DNA of 14,590 bases, from the IMG/VR virus record IMGVR_UViG_2585427790_000008. One strand, given 5' to 3'. Below the pieces are notes generated by a model that ran no database searches, was not told where the DNA came from, and worked only from the letters and a program-made list of their open reading frames with translations. Shown here piece after piece: positions 1 to 14,590 of the stretch (positions are counted from its first letter, which is position 1; each line of letters opens with the position of its first letter). Made by a program: the position numbers and the translations under genes. Origin of the DNA: a virus (Duplodnaviria; Heunggongvirae; Uroviricota; Caudoviricetes).

Positions 1-216
1 GTGAAAGTCATCATTGTTGAAGACGAATTCCTGGCACAACAGGAACTGAGCTGGCTAATTAAAGAGCACAGCCAGATGGAGATTGTCGGCACCTTTGACG
101 ACGGTCTGGACGTGTTGAAGTTTTTGCAGCATAACCGCGTCGACGCCATTTTTCTGGATATCAATATTCCGTCGCTGGATGGCGTGTTGCTGGCGCAAAA
201 CATCAGCCAGTTATAG
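1..216 (+). pseudogene. ypdB: 5' fragment (71 codons) of a LytTR-family two-component response regulator; receiver domain cut off mid-domain by the prophage insertion
   Basis: ORF translation MKVIIVEDEF...FLDINIPSLDG has the receiver-domain acidic pocket (EDE) and the phospho-acceptor Asp in FLDIN; it matches my recollection of the E. coli YpdB N-terminus up to NISQ and then hits a stop (QL*) where the native protein continues. Symbol is from memory, not from a search. Confidence 0.6.
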
Positions 217-224
217 CGCGGCGA

Positions 225-302
225 TTTTTTTGATACCGATTTGCATTTCATTTGATACCGCTGAAAAACGCCGATACGCAACTTATTTGATACTAAATCG
301 GC
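225..302. repeat. Three direct copies of TTTGATAC(C/T) (228-237, 251-260, 286-294) plus a 7-bp inverted repeat CGCCGAT/ATCGGCG (270-276 / 296-302); candidate transposase-binding end sites
   Basis: Repeats read directly from the sequence, sitting between the host junction and the mom stop. This is the position of the attR R1-R3 sites in Mu; the sequences are not identical to the Mu consensus. Confidence 0.3.
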
Positions 303-339
303 GCTTTTCTTTTGAGTTTTAGAATGAGTTTTTAAGCGT

Positions 340-1077
340 TCATTCACTCTCTTTCAAACCAGTTTTAACTGTTTGTGGTTTTGGGTAAGGCTGGACTTTG
401 AATAGCTTTGTGTTAAGGCGTTTTCTGGCTCTCTTGTCCAGAAACCGGATGTAACGAAACTGACGGAATTTATGAACACTGGCTCTGTCGATATTAGCCC
501 GCAGATGTTCACCTCGCTGTCCTCCTCGTTTGATTGCATTCTTGCAAATCTCGTGATACCACTCGCCATCAAGTTCATAGAATGTTGTTTCATGACTGCC
601 TACATAATCAAAATTGCTTGCCTGGTACACGACACCAAGACAGCCACAACGCTCATCTGCAAACGACTGAACCCACTGCACCTGCGGATAAAGTTGTCTG
701 ATTAGTTTGAGCGCGTAACTGATTGCCCTTGATTCGGAGTTTCTCGGCATACAGTCATGCAGCCATAACCGGTTAAGCTCCATATATTCGCGGTTCTGCG
801 TGCCAGTTACGACGCGTGCACCATTGTTTGGATTAAGGGCATAACCCCATTGCATTACGCCAACCAGCTCCCGTTCTGAAAATATGCCCAGATGAAGGTA
901 GGAATTATTTACGAAACGATGGCTGTAATGTTTATTGACGACGACCAGCCGGGCCAGCCAGCAACTTATTGTCTCAACCCGTAACTCACGGGAGCCATAA
1001 CCGACGATATTGTCGTTATAGTGAATAAGTTCAGGCGTGCTGATGATACGGGATGTAACTTGCTTTCTGTTCCCCAC
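340..1077 (-). CDS. mom: Mom-like DNA-modification protein (start uncertain; GTG at 1075-1077 proposed, ORF is open up to 1272)
   Basis: Last gene before the prophage end, same strand as com and overlapping its 3' end, as in Mu. I do not recall the Mom sequence, so the call is by synteny only. Confidence 0.5.
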
Positions 1078-1231
1078 GACAGGATTTCCTTGTGTATGTG
1101 GGGTGCTCTGTGGCGCTCTGAGATGTGATTTGATTGAGGGTTTTACAGCGCGGACATTTAACTTCCAGATAACTGAAGCTGGCTCGTGCCAGTAGCTTGT
1201 TACAATGTCGGCACCGTATGTTTCGATACAT
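1031..1231 (-). CDS. com: Com-like zinc-finger translational activator of mom
   Basis: [44 protein letters not shown] has the CxxC...CxxC pattern and matches Mu Com (IRCKNCNKLL...IRCPRCK...EHP). AGGAGG lies 10 nt upstream of the ATG at 1229-1231. The track ORF starts 15 codons earlier. Confidence 0.7.
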
Positions 1232-1276
1232 GGCCGCATAACCTCCTGCTTTGTTGTTGATATCTTTATCACTCAA

Positions 1277-1298
1277 TCGATCGACAAAAACGATCGAT
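1277..1298. promoter_or_regulatory. Cluster of two GATC (Dam) sites inside the short palindromes TCGATCGA / CGATCGAT, 48-65 bp upstream of com
   Basis: GATC at 1279-1282 and 1292-1295. Mu mom has a Dam/OxyR-controlled GATC cluster upstream of its promoter. Confidence 0.35.
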
Positions 1299-1487
1299 TT
1301 GATTTATTTAATTGATACAACAAATAACACGAAATGTCATTAGCGAAAATTTATGAGTTTGATCACTAATTTTAAACGGTGCTGTAACGCATAAGTGCTG
1401 AATGATTGTACATTTGAATACCGCAAAGCAAACAAATCAACTAATTTATAGAAGTCAATTGGTTAATTGCCAGCGTAAGAGGCTGCT

Positions 1488-1781
1488 ATGGACAATCATG
1501 TAACGACGAGAAATCGAAAAATGATTGAAAATGCGGAAATCTATAATGATTATTTTTCCGATTATTCAGATGCCTGCAAATACAGTTCGAGTGCGGGAGA
1601 GTTCATATGCTTCAACTTTTTTATTAAATCTTATGTTTTTCCTCCACAGCAAGAAGATGGAGGTGTGCCACCTCCTGAAATCACTTTGCACCGTATAGCC
1701 TCCGTCTCAATGATGGAGCAACAGGCTAATGAGCTGTATAGCATTCTGGGAACGATTCTACAAAAGCGTGAATCGGACTAA
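1488..1781 (+). CDS. Hypothetical protein (97 aa), AT-rich, no recognisable motif
   Basis: ORF with AAGAGG 6 nt upstream of the ATG; lies in a low-GC island between com and the esterase cluster. Confidence 0.3.
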   Translation: MDNHVTTRNRKMIENAEIYNDYFSDYSDACKYSSSAGEFICFNFFIKSYVFPPQQEDGGVPPPEITLHRIASVSMMEQQANELYSILGTILQKRESD

Positions 1782-1948
1782 TGATACCGGTTCATTTGCC
1801 TGCCCGGATGGGGAAGCAGGATTGACTGCTCCATAAGCAGCTATATTTCTGAATACGAAATACTATCCAGCGATTACATATGGCTGGATAGCGGCAAAGA
1901 TGTTTTCATTAGTGTCAAACCGGCAGAGGACACCACCGGTTTGTATTG

Positions 1949-2203
1949 TTACATCATGGTACTGTCAGTTCCGGGCTGAGCCGGGTCTGGTTGCTCTGGC
2001 TGCGCGTCGGTTTTCGGCTCATTATCAGCATCACTGGCCGCAACTGCTGGCCCAATAAGTTTTGCCAGCACTTCATCAACGTAAGTGTCGATTTGTGCCT
2101 CAAAATCCTTGCGGACCTGCGCTTTCAGCAACTTATTTACTTCACCGGAATACAGTGCCTGTTTTACCAGGTCTTCAGTGACGGTGCCTTTAATTTCTGG
2201 CAT
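1949..2203 (-). CDS. Hypothetical protein (84 aa), acidic Pro/Gln-rich C-terminus
   Basis: Strong RBS (AAGGAGGATATACATG). Preferred over the overlapping + strand ORF 1946..2332, which has no RBS. Confidence 0.45.
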   Translation of the reverse strand: MPEIKGTVTEDLVKQALYSGEVNKLLKAQVRKDFEAQIDTYVDEVLAKLIGPAVAASDADNEPKTDAQPEQPDPAQPGTDSTMM

Positions 2204-2517: not shown

Positions 2518-2558
2518 GCCGCCGGTTTCTTGTTTTCCCTTACCGGCGGCATTTTTTT
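2518..2558 (+). terminator. Stem-loop GCCGCCGGT-(15 nt)-ACCGGCGGC followed by ATTTTTTTAT on the + strand
   Basis: Perfect 9-bp stem with a downstream T7 run on the + strand, just 3' of the esterase stop on the opposite strand. The loop is long, so this is an uncertain terminator. Confidence 0.35.
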
Positions 2559-2565
2559 ATCCTGC

Positions 2566-4620
2566 TTACGCGTTATTCACTTCCACCACGATACTGTCAA
2601 TCAGTACCGGGTAAGTCGCATTTTTAGTGATATCGGTCACGCGCAACTTGTCTGCCGTAAACGTGCCGACCGGAGACTGCGACAGCATGAATGGTGTCCC
2701 GTCCTTACCATCAATGACCGGCGTCACCTCAATACTGTTGTTACCGGCAAAACGGAAGCCCAGCGTATGCCATTCGTTATTAAATGCGCCGAATGACCCC
2801 AGCTTCGTGTTCTGCGCCGTGTTTCCTTTGTGATACATCACGTTAAGGTCTGTGGCATCGCTCTGTACGTAGAACGATGCCAGCAGGTTATGACCGGCAT
2901 TTCCTTCCAGAGTAACCCCTTGCGGCAGGGCAGAAACCGGCCAGTACAGCGCCAGTGCGTACTGATTAGCCGTAAGCGCGCCATCGAGTTTAAAACGACA
3001 ACTGACAAGACCACCTTTACCCAGCAGGTCCGCACCATTACCAGCATCATGCTCAAGGTACCAGGGGGCTCTTCCTGTTTCCTTGGTCAGTTTCATTGCC
3101 TTACCCCCGCTGGCTCCGGCATCATCCACGATTTGAGCCTTGCCACCTCCGGCAGCCCAACCCTGTGGTGTCAACCGTCCTTCAGACTCAGATGCCCGGT
3201 AAGCAAATAGCGTACTCATCGTCGTGGTGTCTGCGGGTGGCGTGGACGGTTTTGATGGTGTATCAGGTGACGGCTTCTCATCCGGTGGTGTCACGGTCTG
3301 CCCGCGCATCAGTTCAGCCGTGCGCCCTGCATGGAGCATAATAGCTGAGGCCAGACGGTCTGAAATGACGCCCCTGCGTGCCCATGAGCTGAAATGGCTG
3401 TCACGCTGTGTCGAAACAAAACTGCCCTGGGTTCGGGATGCTGCACCGTAATACCCGACAGCCACAATATCCGGGTCTTCCGCCGGAGCATTCGTTGGCG
3501 TGCTCTGTCCATTCTCATCCGTCAGGAACGGTACAAAGAAAATTTTCTGTGCTTCCTTGCCTTTGTAGCCACCGTATACTGCCTCATATTTATCGGTGCC
3601 AGCGTTTTTCCAGTAATACGTGGTATCACCGCAAATCCACGGCACCGTGGTGGCATTTCCACTCACGCACTGCGCAGCAAGCGGAGCCAGGTCAGTTCTG
3701 AACTGCTGAACCATGGCCGTGAATAAACTATTATGCTGCTGGCTTCCTGAGGCAAGGTCTGCCTCTCCCTGCATCCAGACCACAGCCAGAAGTTTGTTTT
3801 TCGGGTTTTTCGCCAGCGCGACTTTGGTGCGGCTTACCAGGTCCTGATACAGAGGTTTACCGGCCCCCCAGCGTGAAGAATCAGCGGAAGCACCGCTGGC
3901 CTCACTGAATGAGCCGTCGGCTCCAGTGGTGAATGCTGACCCGCCACGACAACAGGGCACCAGAAGTATCCCGGCATTCTGTGGGATATAGGGAAGCAGT
4001 TTTTTGGCAATATGCAACCCCTGACCGACAGTCCCGTACTGGCCTTTTGCCAGATCAGCTTTCGGGTGGTTTATCCCGCTCATATCCTGAACATCATGCA
4101 GGCAGTGGTCTGCCGGAATGATGTCGTTGTATGTACACGACGTACCGTTGGGCGTTACCGTACTGCGGCGTGCCAGTTGCTTAATGCGTGGGTCCGGGCG
4201 GTCAAACGAATCCGGTAACGGCAGCCCCTCGCCGTAGGCCATGCCATTTGACTGACCCGCGAGAATGACAACAAAGTAATATTCCGGCTCTGAACTGCTG
4301 CCATTCGTGCTACCGGAAGGCCCGGCGTTATCCGGTGCATTCCAGTCGGAGGGCGTGAGCGTTCCGGCCACGTCAGATGTGATTGGAATGATGCCAGTCA
4401 CGCCTGAACTGGTGATTTCTGCACTGGGATTACCGGATACCGGCATTACCCATAATGGCTCTTTCGTGCTGAAGCGGATCACGCAGTCTGCGAAGGTGAT
4501 CCCCCCTTTATTACCCGAAGGGCGGAAAGGGCTTTCAATAAATGCCACCGTGCCACCGGCAACCTTGACTGAAAACTCTCCGGGCATGGCGGAGAGCATT
4601 TTCCACTTGGAGTCTGACAT
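2566..4620 (-). CDS. SGNH/SASA-family sialate O-acetylesterase-like protein (prophage NanS-p-like), 684 aa
   Basis: GQSN catalytic-serine motif (VVILAGQSNGMAYGEG) and downstream WMQGEAD motif typical of SASA esterases; Ser/Thr/Pro-rich linkers; long C-terminal beta-rich region. Confidence 0.7.
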   Translation of the reverse strand: MSDSKWKMLSAMPGEFSVKVAGGTVAFIESPFRPSGNKGGITFADCVIRFSTKEPLWVMPVSGNPSAEITSSGVTGIIPITSDVAGTLTPSDWNAPDNAGPSGSTNGSSSEPEYYFVVILAGQSNGMAYGEGLPLPDSFDRPDPRIKQLARRSTVTPNGTSCTYNDIIPADHCLHDVQDMSGINHPKADLAKGQYGTVGQGLHIAKKLLPYIPQNAGILLVPCCRGGSAFTTGADGSFSEASGASADSSRWGAGKPLYQDLVSRTKVALAKNPKNKLLAVVWMQGEADLASGSQQHNSLFTAMVQQFRTDLAPLAAQCVSGNATTVPWICGDTTYYWKNAGTDKYEAVYGGYKGKEAQKIFFVPFLTDENGQSTPTNAPAEDPDIVAVGYYGAASRTQGSFVSTQRDSHFSSWARRGVISDRLASAIMLHAGRTAELMRGQTVTPPDEKPSPDTPSKPSTPPADTTTMSTLFAYRASESEGRLTPQGWAAGGGKAQIVDDAGASGGKAMKLTKETGRAPWYLEHDAGNGADLLGKGGLVSCRFKLDGALTANQYALALYWPVSALPQGVTLEGNAGHNLLASFYVQSDATDLNVMYHKGNTAQNTKLGSFGAFNNEWHTLGFRFAGNNSIEVTPVIDGKDGTPFMLSQSPVGTFTADKLRVTDITKNATYPVLIDSIVVEVNNA

Positions 4621-4705: not shown

Positions 4706-5277
4706 TCACGGTACTTTTGGTGACGGAGCTGGTGAGGCAGGAAAATAACGATAAAGGGTGGAAAGGCCAATATCAAATATCAGTGCGATTTGTTTACGGG
4801 ACTCGCCATTAGCCAGCAAACGGGCGATTTGCTCCCGCTCTTTCTCTGTCAGTTTCTGAGGTCTGCCGCCATGACGCCCCTGAGCACGGGCAGCAGCAAG
4901 ACCCGCGCGTGTACGTTCAATAATGAGTTCCCGCTCCATTTCCGCCAGCGCGCCCATTATATGGAAAAGAAACGTCCCATGGGAGTGGATGTATCAATAT
5001 TGTCCGTAATGCTGCGGAAGTTAACGCCGCGTTGCCGGAGTTCTTCTGTTAAAAGGACAAGGTGCTGCATACTGCGTCCAAGGCGATCCAGTTTCCAGAC
5101 CAGCAGGGTATCCCCTGGCCGGAGTCGCTTTAATGCGCGTTTAAGTCCGGGACGCTCCCTTGTCTTACCGCTTATTCTGTCTTCGAAAAACAGCTCACAT
5201 CCTGCACATTCCAGCGCATTTCTTTGTAGCGCCGTATTCTGGTCATTTGTTGACACCCTGATATACCCAATCAGCAT
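4706..5277 (-). pseudogene. gin: Gin/Pin/Hin-family serine DNA invertase split by a -1 frameshift
   Basis: N-terminal ORF MLIGYIRVSTNDQ...PMGRFFSI* and C-terminal ORF MGALAEMERELIIERT...STLYRY match Mu Gin either side of ...MGRFFFHVMGALAEMERE. One T is missing from a T-run (+ strand A4 at 4955-4958). Confidence 0.8.
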
Positions 5278-5342
5278 ACGATTTCCTTATTATAAAAAGC
5301 CGGAATTGTCGCATGAGGAATAAAACAGAGTTAATCCTGGCT

Positions 5343-5368
5343 TTCCTGAAAACCTCGGTTTACGGGAA
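5343..5368. other. gix/hix-like 26-bp recombination site TTCCTGAAAACC-TC-GGTTTACGGGAA (invertase-proximal)
   Basis: Imperfect 12-bp dyad half-sites around a 2-bp core, resembling Mu gix and Salmonella hix; sits at the outer edge of the inverted repeat. Confidence 0.6.
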
Positions 5369-5481
5369 ACGGTAAACAGGGCGGCGAATGCCCTGCCATC
5401 GGACGGCACCGCCGTTGCCGCGAACAGGCTGGCAAATGCCCACACAATTAATGGTGTTCCCTTTGACGGGACGCAGGATAT
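5355..5481. repeat. Inverted-repeat copy (proximal), ~127 bp, imperfect, paired with 6547..6673
   Basis: The + strand 5355-5481 aligns by eye with the reverse complement of 6547-6673. Both encode [26 protein letters not shown]...[12 protein letters not shown]. Confidence 0.8.
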
Positions 5482-5707
5482 CACTATCTCATCAGGAACA
5501 GTAACCGCCATAAGACTGGGGTCGGTGACCGCACATATGCCCGGAACATGGGAAAGCTGGGATCTGAATCTGGGGGGCGGCAATGTTCTTACCGGAATTA
5601 AAGTACAGGATGTCGGTAAGAATACGGCAGATAACGTCGGCGGCGTGTATTACCGGCCGTTGCAGTATCTGTTAAATGGAGCATGGGTGACGGCTGCAAG
5701 TATATAA
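5356..5707 (+). CDS. Promoterless alternative tail-fibre C-terminal cassette (Sv'-like), silent in the present orientation
   Basis: Frame open from the crossover site to TAA at 5705-5707. Starts with the same 26 residues as the active fibre C-terminus, then diverges (...[21 protein letters not shown]...YRPLQYLLNGAWVTAASI*). Confidence 0.6.
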
Positions 5708-5715
5708 TGATATTC

Positions 5716-5740
5716 AGAAGGCCTTCCGGCCTTCTTTATT
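5716..5740 (+). terminator. Hairpin AGAAGGCC-TTCC-GGCCTTCT followed by TTTATT, between the convergent cassette and assembly-gene stops
   Basis: 8-bp perfect stem with a T-rich tail on the + strand, located between the stop at 5705-5707 and the minus-strand stop at 5739-5741. Confidence 0.4.
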
Positions 5741-6260
5741 ACTGTGGCTGCTCAGGCCATTTAATGGCGTTAAATTCAGCTTCTGTTTTAATGGCGGGGA
5801 GTTCCATTTTTTTTACCTGACTGATGTATGCCATCCATTGGGTAAGTGCTGCTCTGTCTTCATCGCTGATGGTGCCCAGTTGTAGCTCCGTTCTCCAGTC
5901 ATTAATTTTTTCATATGCCTGATTAAGATATGACTGGCGCATTGCTTCCAGTTTTCTTGCGTAGTTAACCGGAATACGGGAGATTATGCCATTATCAAAC
6001 TTCCAGTTTCCTGAAATATCCGTGCCTTCAGGGAGTTCATCGACCTCAACCACAGAAAACCCCGCAGGATACAGCGCCGAGGCGTCCTGTGATATTGAGC
6101 AGATAACGCCGCTGTCAGGTGTTATGCAAAGTTTATATTTTTTGGTGAATAATGGCAGGGATTCGTAGAAATCCTTACCATCTTCACTCTGGAAATACTG
6201 AACATTATTACCATATGGCATATTTTCAGGATAATAACGGGTTGTATTTTTTAGTTCCAT
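5739..6260 (-). CDS. Tail-fibre assembly chaperone (Mu U / Tfa-like), 173 aa
   Basis: C-terminal region ...ISGNWKFDNGII...LQLGTISDEDRAALTQWMAYISQVK...WPEQPQ resembles Mu U (...LGIISDENKQKLTEWMLYAQKV...FPEQPE); lies immediately downstream of the tail-fibre gene. Confidence 0.8.
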   Translation of the reverse strand: MELKNTTRYYPENMPYGNNVQYFQSEDGKDFYESLPLFTKKYKLCITPDSGVICSISQDASALYPAGFSVVEVDELPEGTDISGNWKFDNGIISRIPVNYARKLEAMRQSYLNQAYEKINDWRTELQLGTISDEDRAALTQWMAYISQVKKMELPAIKTEAEFNAIKWPEQPQ

Positions 6261-6311
6261 AAAATCCTCCTGGAAATAAATCTGTTTTAAAATATATTAT
6301 TTACTGACTAT

Positions 6312-7202
6312 TTATAACTGAGATACCGTAATCCATGTACCTCCGACTAATTTTTGCAGGGGTCTGAATGCTATAAAATCGTTTGAAGCATCAACTTTAC
6401 TGTCAATCTGCAGGCCTGCCATAACATTACCGTACGCAGAGTAATATGCCCCACCGTACATTACCTGCCTGTTCTCTGCTCCCAGCCTGATATCCTGGAT
6501 ATATCGGGAATCCGCATCCTGCTGTGTTATACCAGAAGTGATGTTTATGTCCTGCGTCCCGTCAAAGGGAACCCCATTAATATTTCTTGGGGTGGCGAGT
6601 CTATTCGCGGCAACGGCGGTGCCGTCCGATGGCAGAGCATTCGCCGCCCTGTTTACCGTTTCCCGTAAACCGACGTTATCGATAAAAGCCCCTTTATCCG
6701 GAATGTCTGCGCCGTTCTGCTCCCTGCGCAGGTAACGGTTATCACCTTCGCTTTTGCTGTAAACATCCAGATTATTACGGGCGGTTCCCTTATTCTCCAG
6801 GTCGGCGAGATTCTGATCCTTCGCCAGGGCATTAACGTCAGCGGGACCAAGACTGTTTTTTGTGGCAAGCGTCCCCAGACCAAGATAACCACGGGCCAGA
6901 CGCTGGGCCTCCGCACCGGCATCAGCAATTTCTTTCAGGTTATTTTTCCGGGAAAAGGCATTCGCAGCGATAATGGCTTTAATGGACAGCGTAAGCTGGT
7001 TTAACTGCGCCTTATCCGGCTGAATACTGGCTTCAGCCAGAATATTCAGCAGTTCGGCCTGGAGAATATTCAGCCAGTCCTGACCAATCCAGCTGATACC
7101 TTTTTGTCCGTCACCTTCGGTAAACCAGGTGGTGGTATTACTCTGCGCTGGTGCCAGCGCAGGCATATTCGCCACGCCGGAATTATTATCAACATGAAAC
7201 AT
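6312..7202 (-). CDS. Tail-fibre protein (Mu S-like), 296 aa, with its C-terminal third inside the invertible segment
   Basis: N-terminus [27 protein letters not shown] is typical of Mu/P2-type fibres; start overlaps the upstream stop (TAATG coupling). Confidence 0.8.
6547..6673. repeat. Inverted-repeat copy (distal), within the tail-fibre coding sequence
   Basis: Reverse complement matches 5355-5481 apart from a ~22-bp divergent patch and scattered mismatches. Confidence 0.8.
6661..6686. other. gix/hix-like 26-bp recombination site (distal); reverse complement reads TTATCGATAACG-TC-GGTTTACGGGAA
   Basis: Shares the right half-site and the TC core with the proximal site; the left half-site resembles hixR-type TTATCAAAAACC. 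Confidence 0.55.
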
Positions 7203-11046: not shown

Positions 11047-11454
11047 TTACGGCGCACAAAACGTTGCCAGCCGGTACTGTTCCCGGTGGCACGGTACAGG
11101 GTCACCAGTGCAGGCTCGGTGGTACGTACAGTCACTACTGTTGCACCGGGTAACGTTAATACAGCCCATCAGGCGAACCGCCTGAAACAGTGCGCGCAGC
11201 TCCTGGACTGTCTGAGTTTCCACAAACTGCGGCGGTTCCGGCAGTGCGCTTTGTTTATTCCAGTTCTCATACCAGGAGCGCAGGGAAGCAGCCACAGCAG
11301 CGTTATCGCCTTTATATTTTCCCTTACGGAAAGCCGATAATGTGCCGTCGGAAATTCCCGCCTCTCTGGCGATGGCATACTGCGTCAGTACGCCGCCATC
11401 AATAAGTTCATCAATGGTCTTGATTACATCGTTAATATCGGTCATATTATTCAC
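11047..11454 (-). pseudogene. Truncated Mu B-like transposition protein: N-terminal DNA-binding domain only, AAA+ ATPase domain deleted
   Basis: ...AIAREAGISDGTLSAFRKGKYKGDNAAVAASLRSWYENW...LPEPPQFVETQTV aligns with the MuB N-terminus (...LPEPPRFVETQTV); the Walker A box (GNPGVGKT) expected next is absent and the frame ends 35-40 codons later. Confidence 0.75.
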
Positions 11455-11527: not shown

Positions 11528-13618
11528 TCAGGCCAGCGGATCACTTTCTTTTAATTTCGCTTCGAGCAGTTGCAATCCCCGCTGGAAATTACGCTCGTAT
11601 TCTTCATCAGGTTCATCGTCAGCGACCGGTTGCTGAACGGTCACCGTATTACCCACAGGGCGGTATATGTTTTCCAGCCAGGGCTCCTGCGGCTTGTGCT
11701 CCAGCACGTTGACAACCTCATCCTCGGCATCACGGATTTTTTCCTCTGCGCGTTTACGCATGCCTTTAAGGCGCTGCTGCTGTTTGTAGTATTCCGCGCT
11801 GACAGGGAAGGCTTCGCGTTTATTGCCGTCCCATACCGCCTCGCAAATCACGCTGCCATCCGGGCGGCGCACGGTAATTCGTTCGGCATCATGAATGTCA
11901 TAGCTGATAAGTACCTTACGGCCATGCTCGTCACGCAGCTCGGGCGCGTAGTAAATATTATTCAGCCAGCGTATTTCACAGCGTCTTACAGGGCGCTCCA
12001 CCATCGGCCGGAACATATCCCGCAGTTCAACATCGGACAGCCATTCAATTTCCGTGTCCTCTTCCGCCAGGCGTTTTTTTCTGAACTCCGCCGGGCTGTA
12101 ATGTTTACCGTTCGGCTTCATGGGTAATTCATCGTGCGGCCGGTTGTTGTACCACTCAACACCGTCACGAATGGCATCAATCAGTTCAGACCAGGACGGT
12201 AAATCACGCATCGCTGACTGCTGCCGGGCGTTCAGCCGTTTGCCCTGTTGCAGGGCACTGAATGCCGAGCGTAAATCGCGGTTGGTTTTACGTAACGTCT
12301 CGCGATCTGCTCCTTTCCCGAAATAGGTGCGGTATTTACGGGCTATGCGCATCGGTAATGTGCGGTTAAGCCGTTCGATAATGCCCCGTCCCTGCGGATT
12401 ACCGGCAATCCCTGTCGGGTGATTAATCCCCAGTCGTGGCAGTATCCCCACAATCTCCTTATCCAGGACGTCGGCGGTTTCCCCGGAGCCATTATCCGAG
12501 TAATACAGAAACGGTTTGCCATGATGGCGAATACCGTGCTGTATGGCACCGGCTACGGCGAAAACATTTTCAGCCAGGTCAAGGCTCCAGCCCACCACAA
12601 AGCGCGTGCCACCGTCGATAACAAAGGTCACTTCCGGTGCGAATGGCCGCCCGTGAACCGGGTGCGCGCATTTCAGCTTCATGCCGTGACCGTCACCAAT
12701 CCAGACATAATTCACCGGCATTCTGGACCAGTCGCGGCGCGTGAATCCCTCAAGCTGACGGTATTCACTGCCAGTTACCCGGCCTTTTTGTTTCACCACT
12801 TCCGGCAGTTTCTTCATTGCGCGGCGAATGGTGTCATAAGAGGGCATGATATCGAGCATATAAGGCTCATCAGCGTGCCGGTGCTGCCATTCAGCAACAA
12901 AATCCTCGTAAGCCTCGGTCATTGGTCGGCCGTTTGACTGGCGATACTGCGCCAGAAATTCGGGCAGCCAGTTAATATCTTCGGCTTTTATTTCCTGGCG
13001 TTTACCCGGTGCCAGTAAAAGCAGGCGTTCAGCGGCGTTCTGTGCCTTGTTAAAGGCCGCAATCCAGCGTTTCAGCGTGATTTCACTCAACGCGCGGCTG
13101 TTTCCCTTTTTGGCGTTCGCCGTCTCAACCATTGCCACAATGCGCTCGTCCAGTTGTGATCGTGCCAGGCTGTTAACGAGGAACCGGATAGCCTTAGCGC
13201 AACTAAAGCCGGGTTGTTGCGCGATTTTCAGCACCTCGCTGACGATCGCTATTCGTGCCTCTGCCACTTTACGTTGGTTTTCAGTCAGGGCATTGAGGCG
13301 TTCGACCATCAGTTGGGGTGATCCGCGATATGCCTCCACCGCATCAACCACGGCAGGTGAGCGTCTGGCCTTTGTCACCACCGGAGCCGGTGATTCATCG
13401 GCTTTTTGCGTCATCAGTTGCAGGGCGTAGCGTTCACGTAATGCCTGCTGCGTCACTTCAGGTAAACAGTCGATGCTGTATTCAGTTGCTTTAGAGCCTG
13501 AGCGACGACGGGAACAACAGCTTTTCCCTTGTACGTAACGTTGTAATGCCTGGCGAATACCTTTTGTTGTAGCAGGCATTCCGGGCGCGCCAATCAGTTC
13601 TTTTGCAATGACATACAT
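11528..13618 (-). CDS. Mu A-like DDE transposase, 696 aa, apparently intact
   Basis: Length and position after ner; candidate DDE residues in WIGDGH, YYSDNGSGE and IIERLNR, spaced as in MuA. Confidence 0.8.
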   Translation of the reverse strand: MYVIAKELIGAPGMPATTKGIRQALQRYVQGKSCCSRRRSGSKATEYSIDCLPEVTQQALRERYALQLMTQKADESPAPVVTKARRSPAVVDAVEAYRGSPQLMVERLNALTENQRKVAEARIAIVSEVLKIAQQPGFSCAKAIRFLVNSLARSQLDERIVAMVETANAKKGNSRALSEITLKRWIAAFNKAQNAAERLLLLAPGKRQEIKAEDINWLPEFLAQYRQSNGRPMTEAYEDFVAEWQHRHADEPYMLDIMPSYDTIRRAMKKLPEVVKQKGRVTGSEYRQLEGFTRRDWSRMPVNYVWIGDGHGMKLKCAHPVHGRPFAPEVTFVIDGGTRFVVGWSLDLAENVFAVAGAIQHGIRHHGKPFLYYSDNGSGETADVLDKEIVGILPRLGINHPTGIAGNPQGRGIIERLNRTLPMRIARKYRTYFGKGADRETLRKTNRDLRSAFSALQQGKRLNARQQSAMRDLPSWSELIDAIRDGVEWYNNRPHDELPMKPNGKHYSPAEFRKKRLAEEDTEIEWLSDVELRDMFRPMVERPVRRCEIRWLNNIYYAPELRDEHGRKVLISYDIHDAERITVRRPDGSVICEAVWDGNKREAFPVSAEYYKQQQRLKGMRKRAEEKIRDAEDEVVNVLEHKPQEPWLENIYRPVGNTVTVQQPVADDEPDEEYERNFQRGLQLLEAKLKESDPLA

Positions 13619-13619
13619 A

Positions 13620-13868
13620 TCATGACGCCTTTCTCATATAGCTCTTAACCTGGTATCGACTGGGCCAGATTTCTTCAGGTGATACCCCAAGAGCATCAGC
13701 AATTATTTGCTGATACGGTCGGCAAGGAGTACGTAATACGCTTTTCAGCGAATCCCTGCTGTAACCAGCCTTTAAAGATAAAGAGCGCAGTGATAAGCCA
13801 GCCATGTGTAAGCGCGCCTTGATGATTTCAGGCGGCCAATCGTGATCTGAAACTTCTCTTCTACTCAT
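13620..13868 (-). CDS. ner: Ner-like DNA-binding regulator, 82 aa
   Basis: ...LSLRSLSLKAGYSRDSL...QQIIADALGVSPEEIWPSRY matches Mu Ner (...LSLSALSRQFGY...EQIIANALETKPEVIWPSRY); RBS GAGGAAG upstream; ends 1 nt before the A start. Confidence 0.85.
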   Translation of the reverse strand: MSRREVSDHDWPPEIIKARLHMAGLSLRSLSLKAGYSRDSLKSVLRTPCRPYQQIIADALGVSPEEIWPSRYQVKSYMRKAS

Positions 13869-14059: not shown

Positions 14060-14590
14060 ATGTCGCAGGGAAAAGAACCTGTTATTGAACGTATTGGAAT
14101 GCTTACAAAGCGCTACCCTTCAAGAAGTGCAGCTGCCAGAGCGTGGGGAATCAATATCAACACATTAAACAGCTATTTCAAGGGAGGACAAACACAACCA
14201 GCCCCCAGAGAAAGTATCCTTATACGAATTTCTGAAAGTGAAGGCGTTAGTCTTGAGTGGCTTAAAGAGGGCAAGGGTGAATTACCAAACGATATTGGTA
14301 TTTATGGTAATTTTGGTTGTTCTGGTGATAAGGGAGATCAGCTTACACAGATGCTTTCATTCCTTACGAAAGACGAACGAGAACAGTTAACCAATCTCCT
14401 TGCTCGCAAAGGTGTAGAGACGGTTCTGACACTGCTGAATAAAGAAAACCAGGATTTATTACAACTAGAAGGCAGGAAGCGCCTGGCTGCGTTGATGATT
14501 GTAGATATGCCAGACGATTGCGTCAGAGAGATTTTGGAAAAAACCGAGACAAGTAGGCAATCAAATCCGGTAGAATCTAAAGCGGGTTAG
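14060..14590 (+). CDS. Mu c-type prophage repressor (176 aa); stop codon is the last 3 nt of the window
   Basis: Divergent from ner across an operator region; start chosen at the ATG with AAGAGG 7 nt upstream (the track ORF starts 25 codons earlier at 13985). Confidence 0.65.
   Translation: MSQGKEPVIERIGMLTKRYPSRSAAARAWGININTLNSYFKGGQTQPAPRESILIRISESEGVSLEWLKEGKGELPNDIGIYGNFGCSGDKGDQLTQMLSFLTKDEREQLTNLLARKGVETVLTLLNKENQDLLQLEGRKRLAALMIVDMPDDCVREILEKTETSRQSNPVESKAG

Follow-up and report, generated by a model that had tools for sequence, protein, structure and literature searches.

Positions 212-294 of the window, as we call the whole 14,590-bp stretch of DNA that was analysed, very probably represent the right attachment end of an Sp18-family prophage, and the TTTGATACY repeats in it would be the end-distal halves of three transposase-binding sites of about 22 bp. 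This reading was drawn from sequence comparisons. The initial annotation had likened the repeats to the terminal R1-R3 transposase sites of Mu, and the layout of the repeats, their footprint and their co-variation with the transposase lend support to that proposal. Transposase-binding repeats at the ends of a Mu-like phage are expected biology in a known prophage family. Less expected were the TA termini, a 4-bp target-site duplication, a direct third site, and a natural swap of about 80 transposase residues that is matched at six sites.

Identity and content of the prophage

The window begins in ypdB, an E. coli response-regulator gene that is split by the prophage insertion. The ypdB part was matched by 5,423 of 5,426 E. 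coli genomes. In NZ_CP103972.1, which carries the same insertion, ypdB restarts about 250 bp past the repressor gene. From position 212 onward, the window is a Mu-like prophage, with its right end read inwards. The main features were as follows:

1-211, plus strand, 5' fragment of the host gene ypdB (truncated ypdB in the NZ_CP103972.1 annotation; the gene resumes past the prophage)
340-1077, minus strand, mom, the DNA modification gene and final gene ahead of the right end (Pfam Mom, 7.8e-78; RefSeq)
1031-1231, minus strand, com, a mom regulator of the Com family (RefSeq, from an identical sequence)
11153-11454, minus strand, remnant of the B (MuB-like ATPase) gene (comparison with the full-length copy L002)
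11528-13618, minus strand, transposase A, 696 aa, intact (Pfam Mu-transpos_C and HTH_Tnp_Mu_1)
13620-13868, minus strand, ner-like regulator (Pfam HTH_35, 2.5e-19)
14060-14590, plus strand, repressor (c) gene (by annotation and sequence of L001, which has this insertion)

The overall gene order is Mu-like (c-ner-A-B…gin-com-mom). Inward of com lie tail-fibre and invertase genes, followed by an internal deletion. In full-length relatives, a MuB-like AAA ATPase (Phage-MuB_C) adjoins A, and the remnant alone was found in the window. The window ends at the repressor stop codon, and the left prophage end lies about 250 bp outside it.

Sp18 is a named Mu-like prophage of E. coli O157:H7 Sakai (PMC7430833, PMC10132054). 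The first 100 nt of the right end were identical in the window and Sakai Sp18, and so were the terminal bases of the left end. Variable loci together with an identical 100 nt at the right end are also shared with the Sp18/STEC 'Mu-like phages' of these reports. Compared with the full-length O157-type copy, the identity was 94.8-99.1% over the shared end and tail segments, and only 75-77% over window positions 2542-3190 and 4737-5496. The data indicate that the window prophage is an internally deleted Sp18-family Mu-like prophage in ypdB. This family was present in 231 of 5,426 complete E. coli genomes (about 4%).

At the deletion joint, 11152|11153, the beginning of the B (ATPase) gene abuts the baseplate region. 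Position 11153 corresponds to position 3975 of L002, inside the AAA ATPase gene, and position 11152 to position 28209. About 24 kb is absent from the window copy, including B, gam, mor and the lysis, head, tail sheath, tube and tape measure genes. The element is about 14.9 kb long, versus 38.8 kb at full length (Sp18; L002). The window copy is defective, yet it has retained both ends and an intact transposase. The same ypdB insertion occurs in other strains with different deletions, giving elements of 10.7 and 21.8 kb, which indicates that the prophage is decaying in place.

Termini and target-site duplication

The phage/host junction was located at 211|212, and the element begins at T212, to the left of the repeats. 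The initial annotation had named a junction to the right of the repeats as evidence against its proposal, and this was not what we found. It had also been unable to place a canonical 5'-TG at the junction. That reading was correct, as the right end starts with 5'-TA, which is typical of the clade.

212-213, plus strand, right-end terminus 5'-TA (T212, A213); six differently located insertions share TATAGCGCGG... from T212, with unrelated DNA before it
208-211, no strand assigned, target-site duplication CAGT, copy 1; copy 2 lies past the other prophage end, outside the window (flanks of L001)

The Sp18-type loci were ypdB, icmH, a JAB-domain gene, rhs, the tail gene of another prophage, and sorM (Sakai). 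Read from the outside inwards, the right-end sequence TATAGCGCGGCGATTTTTTTGATACC… and the left-end sequence TGTAACCAGGTGAATCATTTGATACC… were unchanged beside unrelated host DNA. As is expected of a Mu-type element, the prophage was thus found at many unrelated chromosomal loci with identical ends and short direct-repeat flanks. The right terminus was TA in all Sp18-type copies, and the L007 and P0019 types had TA at both ends. Among the termini of relatives that were examined, all were TA except the Sp18 left end, which is TG. Mu in the strict sense ends in 5'-TG…CA-3', whereas the Sp18 prophage has TG at the left and TA at the right.

The duplications flanking the insertions were as follows:

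ypdB (the window, L001), Sp18 type, CAGT
icmH (L002), Sp18 type, AGCA
JAB-domain gene (L003), Sp18 type, CTTA
rhs (L004), Sp18 type, ATAC
tail gene of another prophage (L005), Sp18 type, AGTG
sorM (Sakai Sp18), Sp18 type, TAAA
L011, L007 type, TTCA
L013, L007 type, GAAA
glpT (L022), P0019 type, AGCC

A tenth insertion came from GenBank record LC727895, which annotates a 4-bp repeat for a phage of this kind. A 4-bp duplication fits all ten insertions, and one of 5 bp was unambiguously excluded in five (L002, L004, L005, L011 and L022), where the fifth base is mismatched. The fifth base is ambiguous in ypdB, L003, L013 and Sakai. A 5-bp duplication starting at A213 fits these four by coincidence and fails elsewhere; in the four, it would also require that the conserved terminal T or A leave the element. 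This indicates that the Sp18 clade duplicates 4 bp on insertion.

The target duplication is 5 bp in Mu and 6 bp in B3 (PMC3145075, PMC8705779). TA-TA ends have been described in the transposable prophages of Leptospira, in which the termini are TA-TA or TG-CA (PMC8705779). B3 and the Leptospira prophages show that Mu-like phages differ in their terminal dinucleotide and duplication length. However, they duplicate 6 bp and the enterobacterial clade duplicates 4 bp, and Sp18 combines a TG with a TA end. In Sakai, Sp18 spans 5040971..5079729 by its RefSeq feature, versus 5040970..5079724 for the ends inferred here.

Repeats and layout of the sites

TTTGATACY was matched three times in the 14,590 bp when both strands were scanned, each time on the plus strand. 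The three direct copies of TTTGATAC(C/T) noted earlier near the right end are therefore real and the sole matches in the window. They lie on the phage side of the junction as stated, and only the limit of 70 bp needs correction, as the third copy starts 75 nt in, slightly further. The first bases of the motifs lie at nt 18, 40 and 75 from the terminus. The similarity extends beyond 9 nt: there is a 16-nt family of three copies, and the pair 236-258 and 271-293 is 78% identical over 23 nt. The proposed sites are as follows:

216-237, plus strand, proposed site R1, nt 5-26 from the terminus; TTTGATACY copy 1, TTTGATACC, at 229-237, positioned as the Mu R1 half (18-27)
238-259, plus strand, proposed site R2, nt 27-48; TTTGATACY copy 2, TTTGATACC, at 251-259, with the Mu R2 half at 40-49
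273-294, plus strand (direct), proposed site R3, nt 62-83; TTTGATACY copy 3, TTTGATACT, at 286-294, with the 23-nt similarity to R2

R1 and R2 are contiguous in a 22-bp register, and the position of R2 is the same in the P0019-type and L007-type right ends. The R3 motif starts at 75 in three phage types.

One could suppose that the repeats arose by chance in AT-rich terminal DNA and have no function. The region is indeed AT-rich (41% GC over 151-450) and the motif is short. However, 0.15 copies were expected and three were observed, none of 200 shuffles contained three or more copies, and both the positions and the motif were kept across diverged relatives. The chance explanation is effectively refuted.

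The other prophage end, at which the initial annotation expected the motif in inverted orientation, carries three inverted copies, of which the first again starts 18 nt in. The left-end motifs, on the opposite strand, occupy 18-26, 113-121 and 165-173, and the right-end motifs 18-26, 40-48 and 75-83. L2 and L3 thus sit about 95 and 147 bp inward of L1. Of the eight strict matches to the motif in the full-length prophage, six fell within the terminal 175 bp of the two ends. In Mu, the ARYRCGAAAR half-sites start at 18, 40 and, inverted, 56-65 at the right end, and at 18, 123 and 163 at the left end. This half was scanned in Mu's own ends only, and the Sp18 sites were judged by reading the printed sequences. 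The positions of the Sp18 sites are within 10 nt of those of Mu (the R1-R2 pair; L1 terminal, with L2 and L3 further in).

The Sp18 ends therefore resemble those of Mu in several respects. The right-end sites lie by mom at the extreme right end. There are three sites per end, inverted between the ends, and the conserved half is the end-distal one, starting at nt 18 in R1 and L1 and at nt 40 in R2. Relative to L1, L2 and L3 are set inward by about 95-105 and 145-147 nt, and the terminal bases of the right end are similar (TATAGCGCGGCG versus TGAAGCGGCGCA in Mu). Unlike Mu, which has RCGAAAR as recognition sequence, the Sp18 ends have TTTGATACY. R3 is direct at 62-83 and that of Mu is inverted, at about 56-77; the right terminus is TA and that of Mu is CA; and the duplication is 4 bp, against 5 bp in Mu. 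The earlier remark that the motifs differ from the Mu consensus was borne out, with RCGAAA in none of the six Sp18 sites. The 22-bp MuA consensus (YGTTTCAYTNNAARYRCGAAAR) does not describe these sites, for which the consensus is (A)TTTGATACYR.

An extra exact TTTGATACC was found on the minus strand at 3659-3667 of L002, the full-length O157-type copy, between the A and B genes. The corresponding region of the window has no such copy, which makes a functional role for it improbable.

The L1-L2 spacer of Mu is where HU binds. In the P0019 and P0002 left ends (L014 1830-1880, L017; …AAAAATCCGGGAGGAAAGTGGATCAAACGGGATTTGATGGGAT…), this spacer is homologous to that of Mu (…AAAAAAACCGGGAGGACATTGGATTATTCGGGATCTGATGGGAT…). 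The transposase sites of these types differ from those of Mu although their L1-L2 spacer is recognisably Mu-like.

Conservation across relatives

Transposase homologues of several types share 93-97% identity with the window protein in the catalytic region and only 34-75% in the first 200 residues. Left ends were recovered for the P0019, P0002, P0004 and P0088 types, and a right end for the P0019 type. All four left ends have TTTGATACY from 18, with further copies near 112-122 and 164, and the motif recurs at 18, 40 and 75 in the right end of the P0019 type. Across 19 unique sites from five transposase types, TTTGATA was invariant. The next base was C in 18 of 19, the C position was followed by Y and then R in all, and A preceded the motif (-1) in 16 of 19. 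The proximal half was weakly conserved and the flanks were variable.

The initial annotation had suggested an alignment with the ends of related Mu-like prophages. When the right ends of the Sp18 and P0019 types were compared, identity was 100% in the motif blocks, 50-69% in the intervening DNA and 34% past R3. Motifs that are kept while their flanks diverge are the pattern expected of protein-binding sites under selection.

One departure was seen at L022 318-326, the P0019-type left end in glpT, in which the L1 motif reads TTTGATGCT and an otherwise invariant position is changed. This change may mark an immobilised prophage.

Co-variation with the transposase

The Sp18-like clade comprises at least six transposase types, in E. 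coli, Shigella, Salmonella and Yersinia. The sixth type (L007, L008, L011, L013) lacks TTTGATAC and carries TTCAAGATAA at right-end positions 18, 40 and 75 and at three left-end positions. When the GTDB representative genomes were scanned with the transposase, two loci only were found, both of the L007 type. L007 was also considered as a phage of the Mu/SfMu type, and this was rejected, as the Mu left-end sequence was not found in it. The L007 and P0019 types agree fully over the first 15 nt at the right end, which indicates that the motif half alone was exchanged. The P0002-type ends use TTTGATACT. The identities between the transposases were as follows:

L007 type versus P0002 type: residues 1-117, 83-87%; residues 118-200, 43%; residues 201-696, 99-100%
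P0002 type versus P0003/P0019 type: residues 1-117, 51-57%; residues 118-200, 99%; residues 201-696, 94-99%

Taken with the motifs, these identities indicate that the motif tracks residues 118-200. The corresponding feature in the window is:

13019-13267, minus strand, transposase residues 118-200, the segment that would read TTTGATACY (comparison of the L007 and P0002 types)

Residues 1-117 differ by 13-17% between the L007 and P0002 types and may contribute to end specificity.

These data also bear on the possibility that the motifs bind another protein, such as the repressor, Ner or a host nucleoid protein, or that they regulate mom. The motifs are indeed close to the downstream side of mom, and a hairpin that could affect mom transcripts encloses the third. 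However, the inverted motif is found at the far end by the repressor gene at the same 18-nt distance, as a mom-specific element would not be. Elsewhere in the window, the repressor-ner control region included, the motif does not occur, and all six sites change in register with one transposase segment. In addition, the mom stop codon of the P0019 type is beside R3, so that the spacing to mom is not conserved. We regard binding of another protein, or a role in mom regulation, as very unlikely, and the sites are taken below as candidate transposase sites.

The inverted pair and the third site

The inverted pair CGCCGAT/ATCGGCG reported by the initial annotation is present at 269-275 and 297-303. 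These 7 nt alone are not significant for a region of such size. They belong to longer arms of 13 nt, 92% complementary and 21 nt apart, with the R3 motif in the loop:

263-275 and 297-309, minus strand, inverted repeat enclosing R3, candidate mom terminator

In the minus-strand RNA, a 13-bp stem with a trailing UUUUU run comes directly after the mom stop codon (folding energy -25.5 kcal/mol, z -3.9). A consensus terminator scan with a loop limit of 8 nt did not call the pair, the loop of 21 nt being atypical. The L007 type has a canonical hairpin and T-run at the equivalent place beside R3. In the P0019 type there is no hairpin and the mom stop codon directly adjoins R3. In L003, a strain of the Sp18 type, a G-to-A change breaks the stem. 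The inverted repeat is thus a variable feature of the clade, and its left arm overlaps the R2-like proximal half of R3. The inverted pair is best read as a putative lineage-specific mom terminator that stands outside the site design, and it is probably unrelated to transposase recognition. Transcription into the Mu ends is reported to disturb transpososome assembly, and Mu R3 is dispensable (PMC3145075). A terminator beside the right end would make sense for this reason.

It is conceivable that R1 and R2 alone are functional, and that the third copy with the inverted pair is a bidirectional intrinsic mom terminator that resembles a site. The hairpin and U-run straight after mom, the canonical terminator hairpin at the equivalent L007-type place, and the dispensability of Mu R3 and the effect of read-through in Mu agree with this idea. 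On the other hand, the third motif stays at 75-83 in three types and switches to TTCAAGATA in the L007 type, changed along with the other five sites, which points to selection. The third copy also shares the 23-nt similarity with R2. The atypical loop, the lack of a call in the scan and the broken stem of L003 weaken the case for a terminator, and the roles of terminator and site are in any case compatible. We consider the restriction to two functional sites unlikely, and we believe that the third copy probably belongs to a set of three sites. Its role is nevertheless the least certain of the three, as it is direct here, whereas Mu R3 is inverted and dispensable.

Transposase architecture and proposed mechanism

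The transposase is 25% identical to MuA. PF02316 and PF09299 were found above their cut-offs. Neither PF09039 (I-gamma) nor PF02914 (DDE_2) matched in the Pfam search of the transposase, and the rve-like core remained below threshold. In a profile comparison with MuA (hhalign), the two were collinear over 591 columns with a probability of 95.5% and low identity; residues ~95-200 were aligned opposite I-beta and residues ~200-270 opposite I-gamma. The N-terminus matched the enhancer-binding domain of MuA (1TNS, 5e-5).

A sequence search of the PDB gave the avian retroviral integrases (ASV/RSV) as the best match for residues ~360-425, with E about 1e-5. This search found the I-alpha domain and integrase cores, and it did not find I-beta, I-gamma or a significant MuA core. 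Unlike that of Mu, the core is thus nearer in sequence to retroviral integrases (rve-like) than to Pfam DDE_2. The likeness to these integrases concerns the DDE core only, and there is no common end-binding domain. Members of the retroviral integrase superfamily have staggers of 4-6 bp. Structure prediction was weak, with a mean pLDDT of 44 at full length and 57.8 for residues 95-275, and a PDB fold search with the transposase models gave nothing at E <=0.001.

By position, residues 118-200 appear to be the counterpart of MuA I-beta. Schumacher et al. reportedly found in 1997 that I-beta binds the more conserved, end-distal half of the MuA sites. The pattern of motif and residues in Sp18 matches such an I-beta reading of the end-distal half. 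MuA uses I-beta and I-gamma to bind three sites at each end (PMC3145075, PMC3362531).

The mechanism that we propose is modelled from sequence, and the roles of the individual sites, the domain assignment and the binding itself are put forward with this in mind. Monomers of the 696-aa transposase would bind each of R1, R2 and R3. A helical segment around residues 118-200 would read TTTGATACY, and the more conserved neighbouring segment, about 201-275 (the I-gamma counterpart), would contact the less conserved half near the terminus. R1, R2 and L1 would form the core of the synaptic complex, with R3, L2 and L3 as accessory sites. Cleavage would leave a 3'-OH on the terminal A, as …TA-3' at the right end and …CA-3' at the left end, and target joining would then occur with a 4-bp stagger.

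Meaning of the Sp18-like clade

We suggest, with confidence a little short of even, that the Sp18-like clade is a distinct branch of Mu-type transposition. Such a branch would be marked by an ancestral TA-3' in place of the near-universal CA-3', a 4-bp stagger in place of 5 bp, a core nearer in sequence to retroviral integrases than to MuA, and the natural swap of a module of about 80 residues, matched by changes at all six end sites. In the literature to which we had access, which was incomplete, no paper was found that described these features, or the end-binding sites, TA terminus or duplication length of the Sp18 family; one GenBank record with the 4-bp repeat was found.

The exact boundaries are now fixed for a prophage family that disrupts host genes and Stx phages, and the RefSeq boundaries for this family in Sakai were a few bases off. 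The cis sites, together with the candidate specificity module (residues 118-200), could possibly serve as an orthogonal transposition tool of the mini-Mu type. The clade also offers a natural set of variants in which to study how a Mu-type transpososome copes with TA termini and sets its stagger at 4 and not 5 bp.

Other observations

An Rfam search of window positions 1-2000 returned no RNA families. The tail-fibre segment at 5339-6690 is flipped in the window relative to the L001 and L003 copies of this prophage, with 99% identity. Inverted repeats of about 140 bp (about 5339-5481 and 6547-6690) flank the segment, which adjoins a Gin-like recombinase gene, of which a remnant lies at 4706-5277. 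The segment resembles an invertible host-range switch of the G-segment type, seen here in both orientations. In NZ_AP022815.1 and NZ_AP022811.1 (hits H5/H6 and H38/H39), flgK adjoins the right end, and the left end is next to a citrate lyase gene about 680 kb off. These separated ends suggest a chromosomal rearrangement between two prophage copies or a split prophage.
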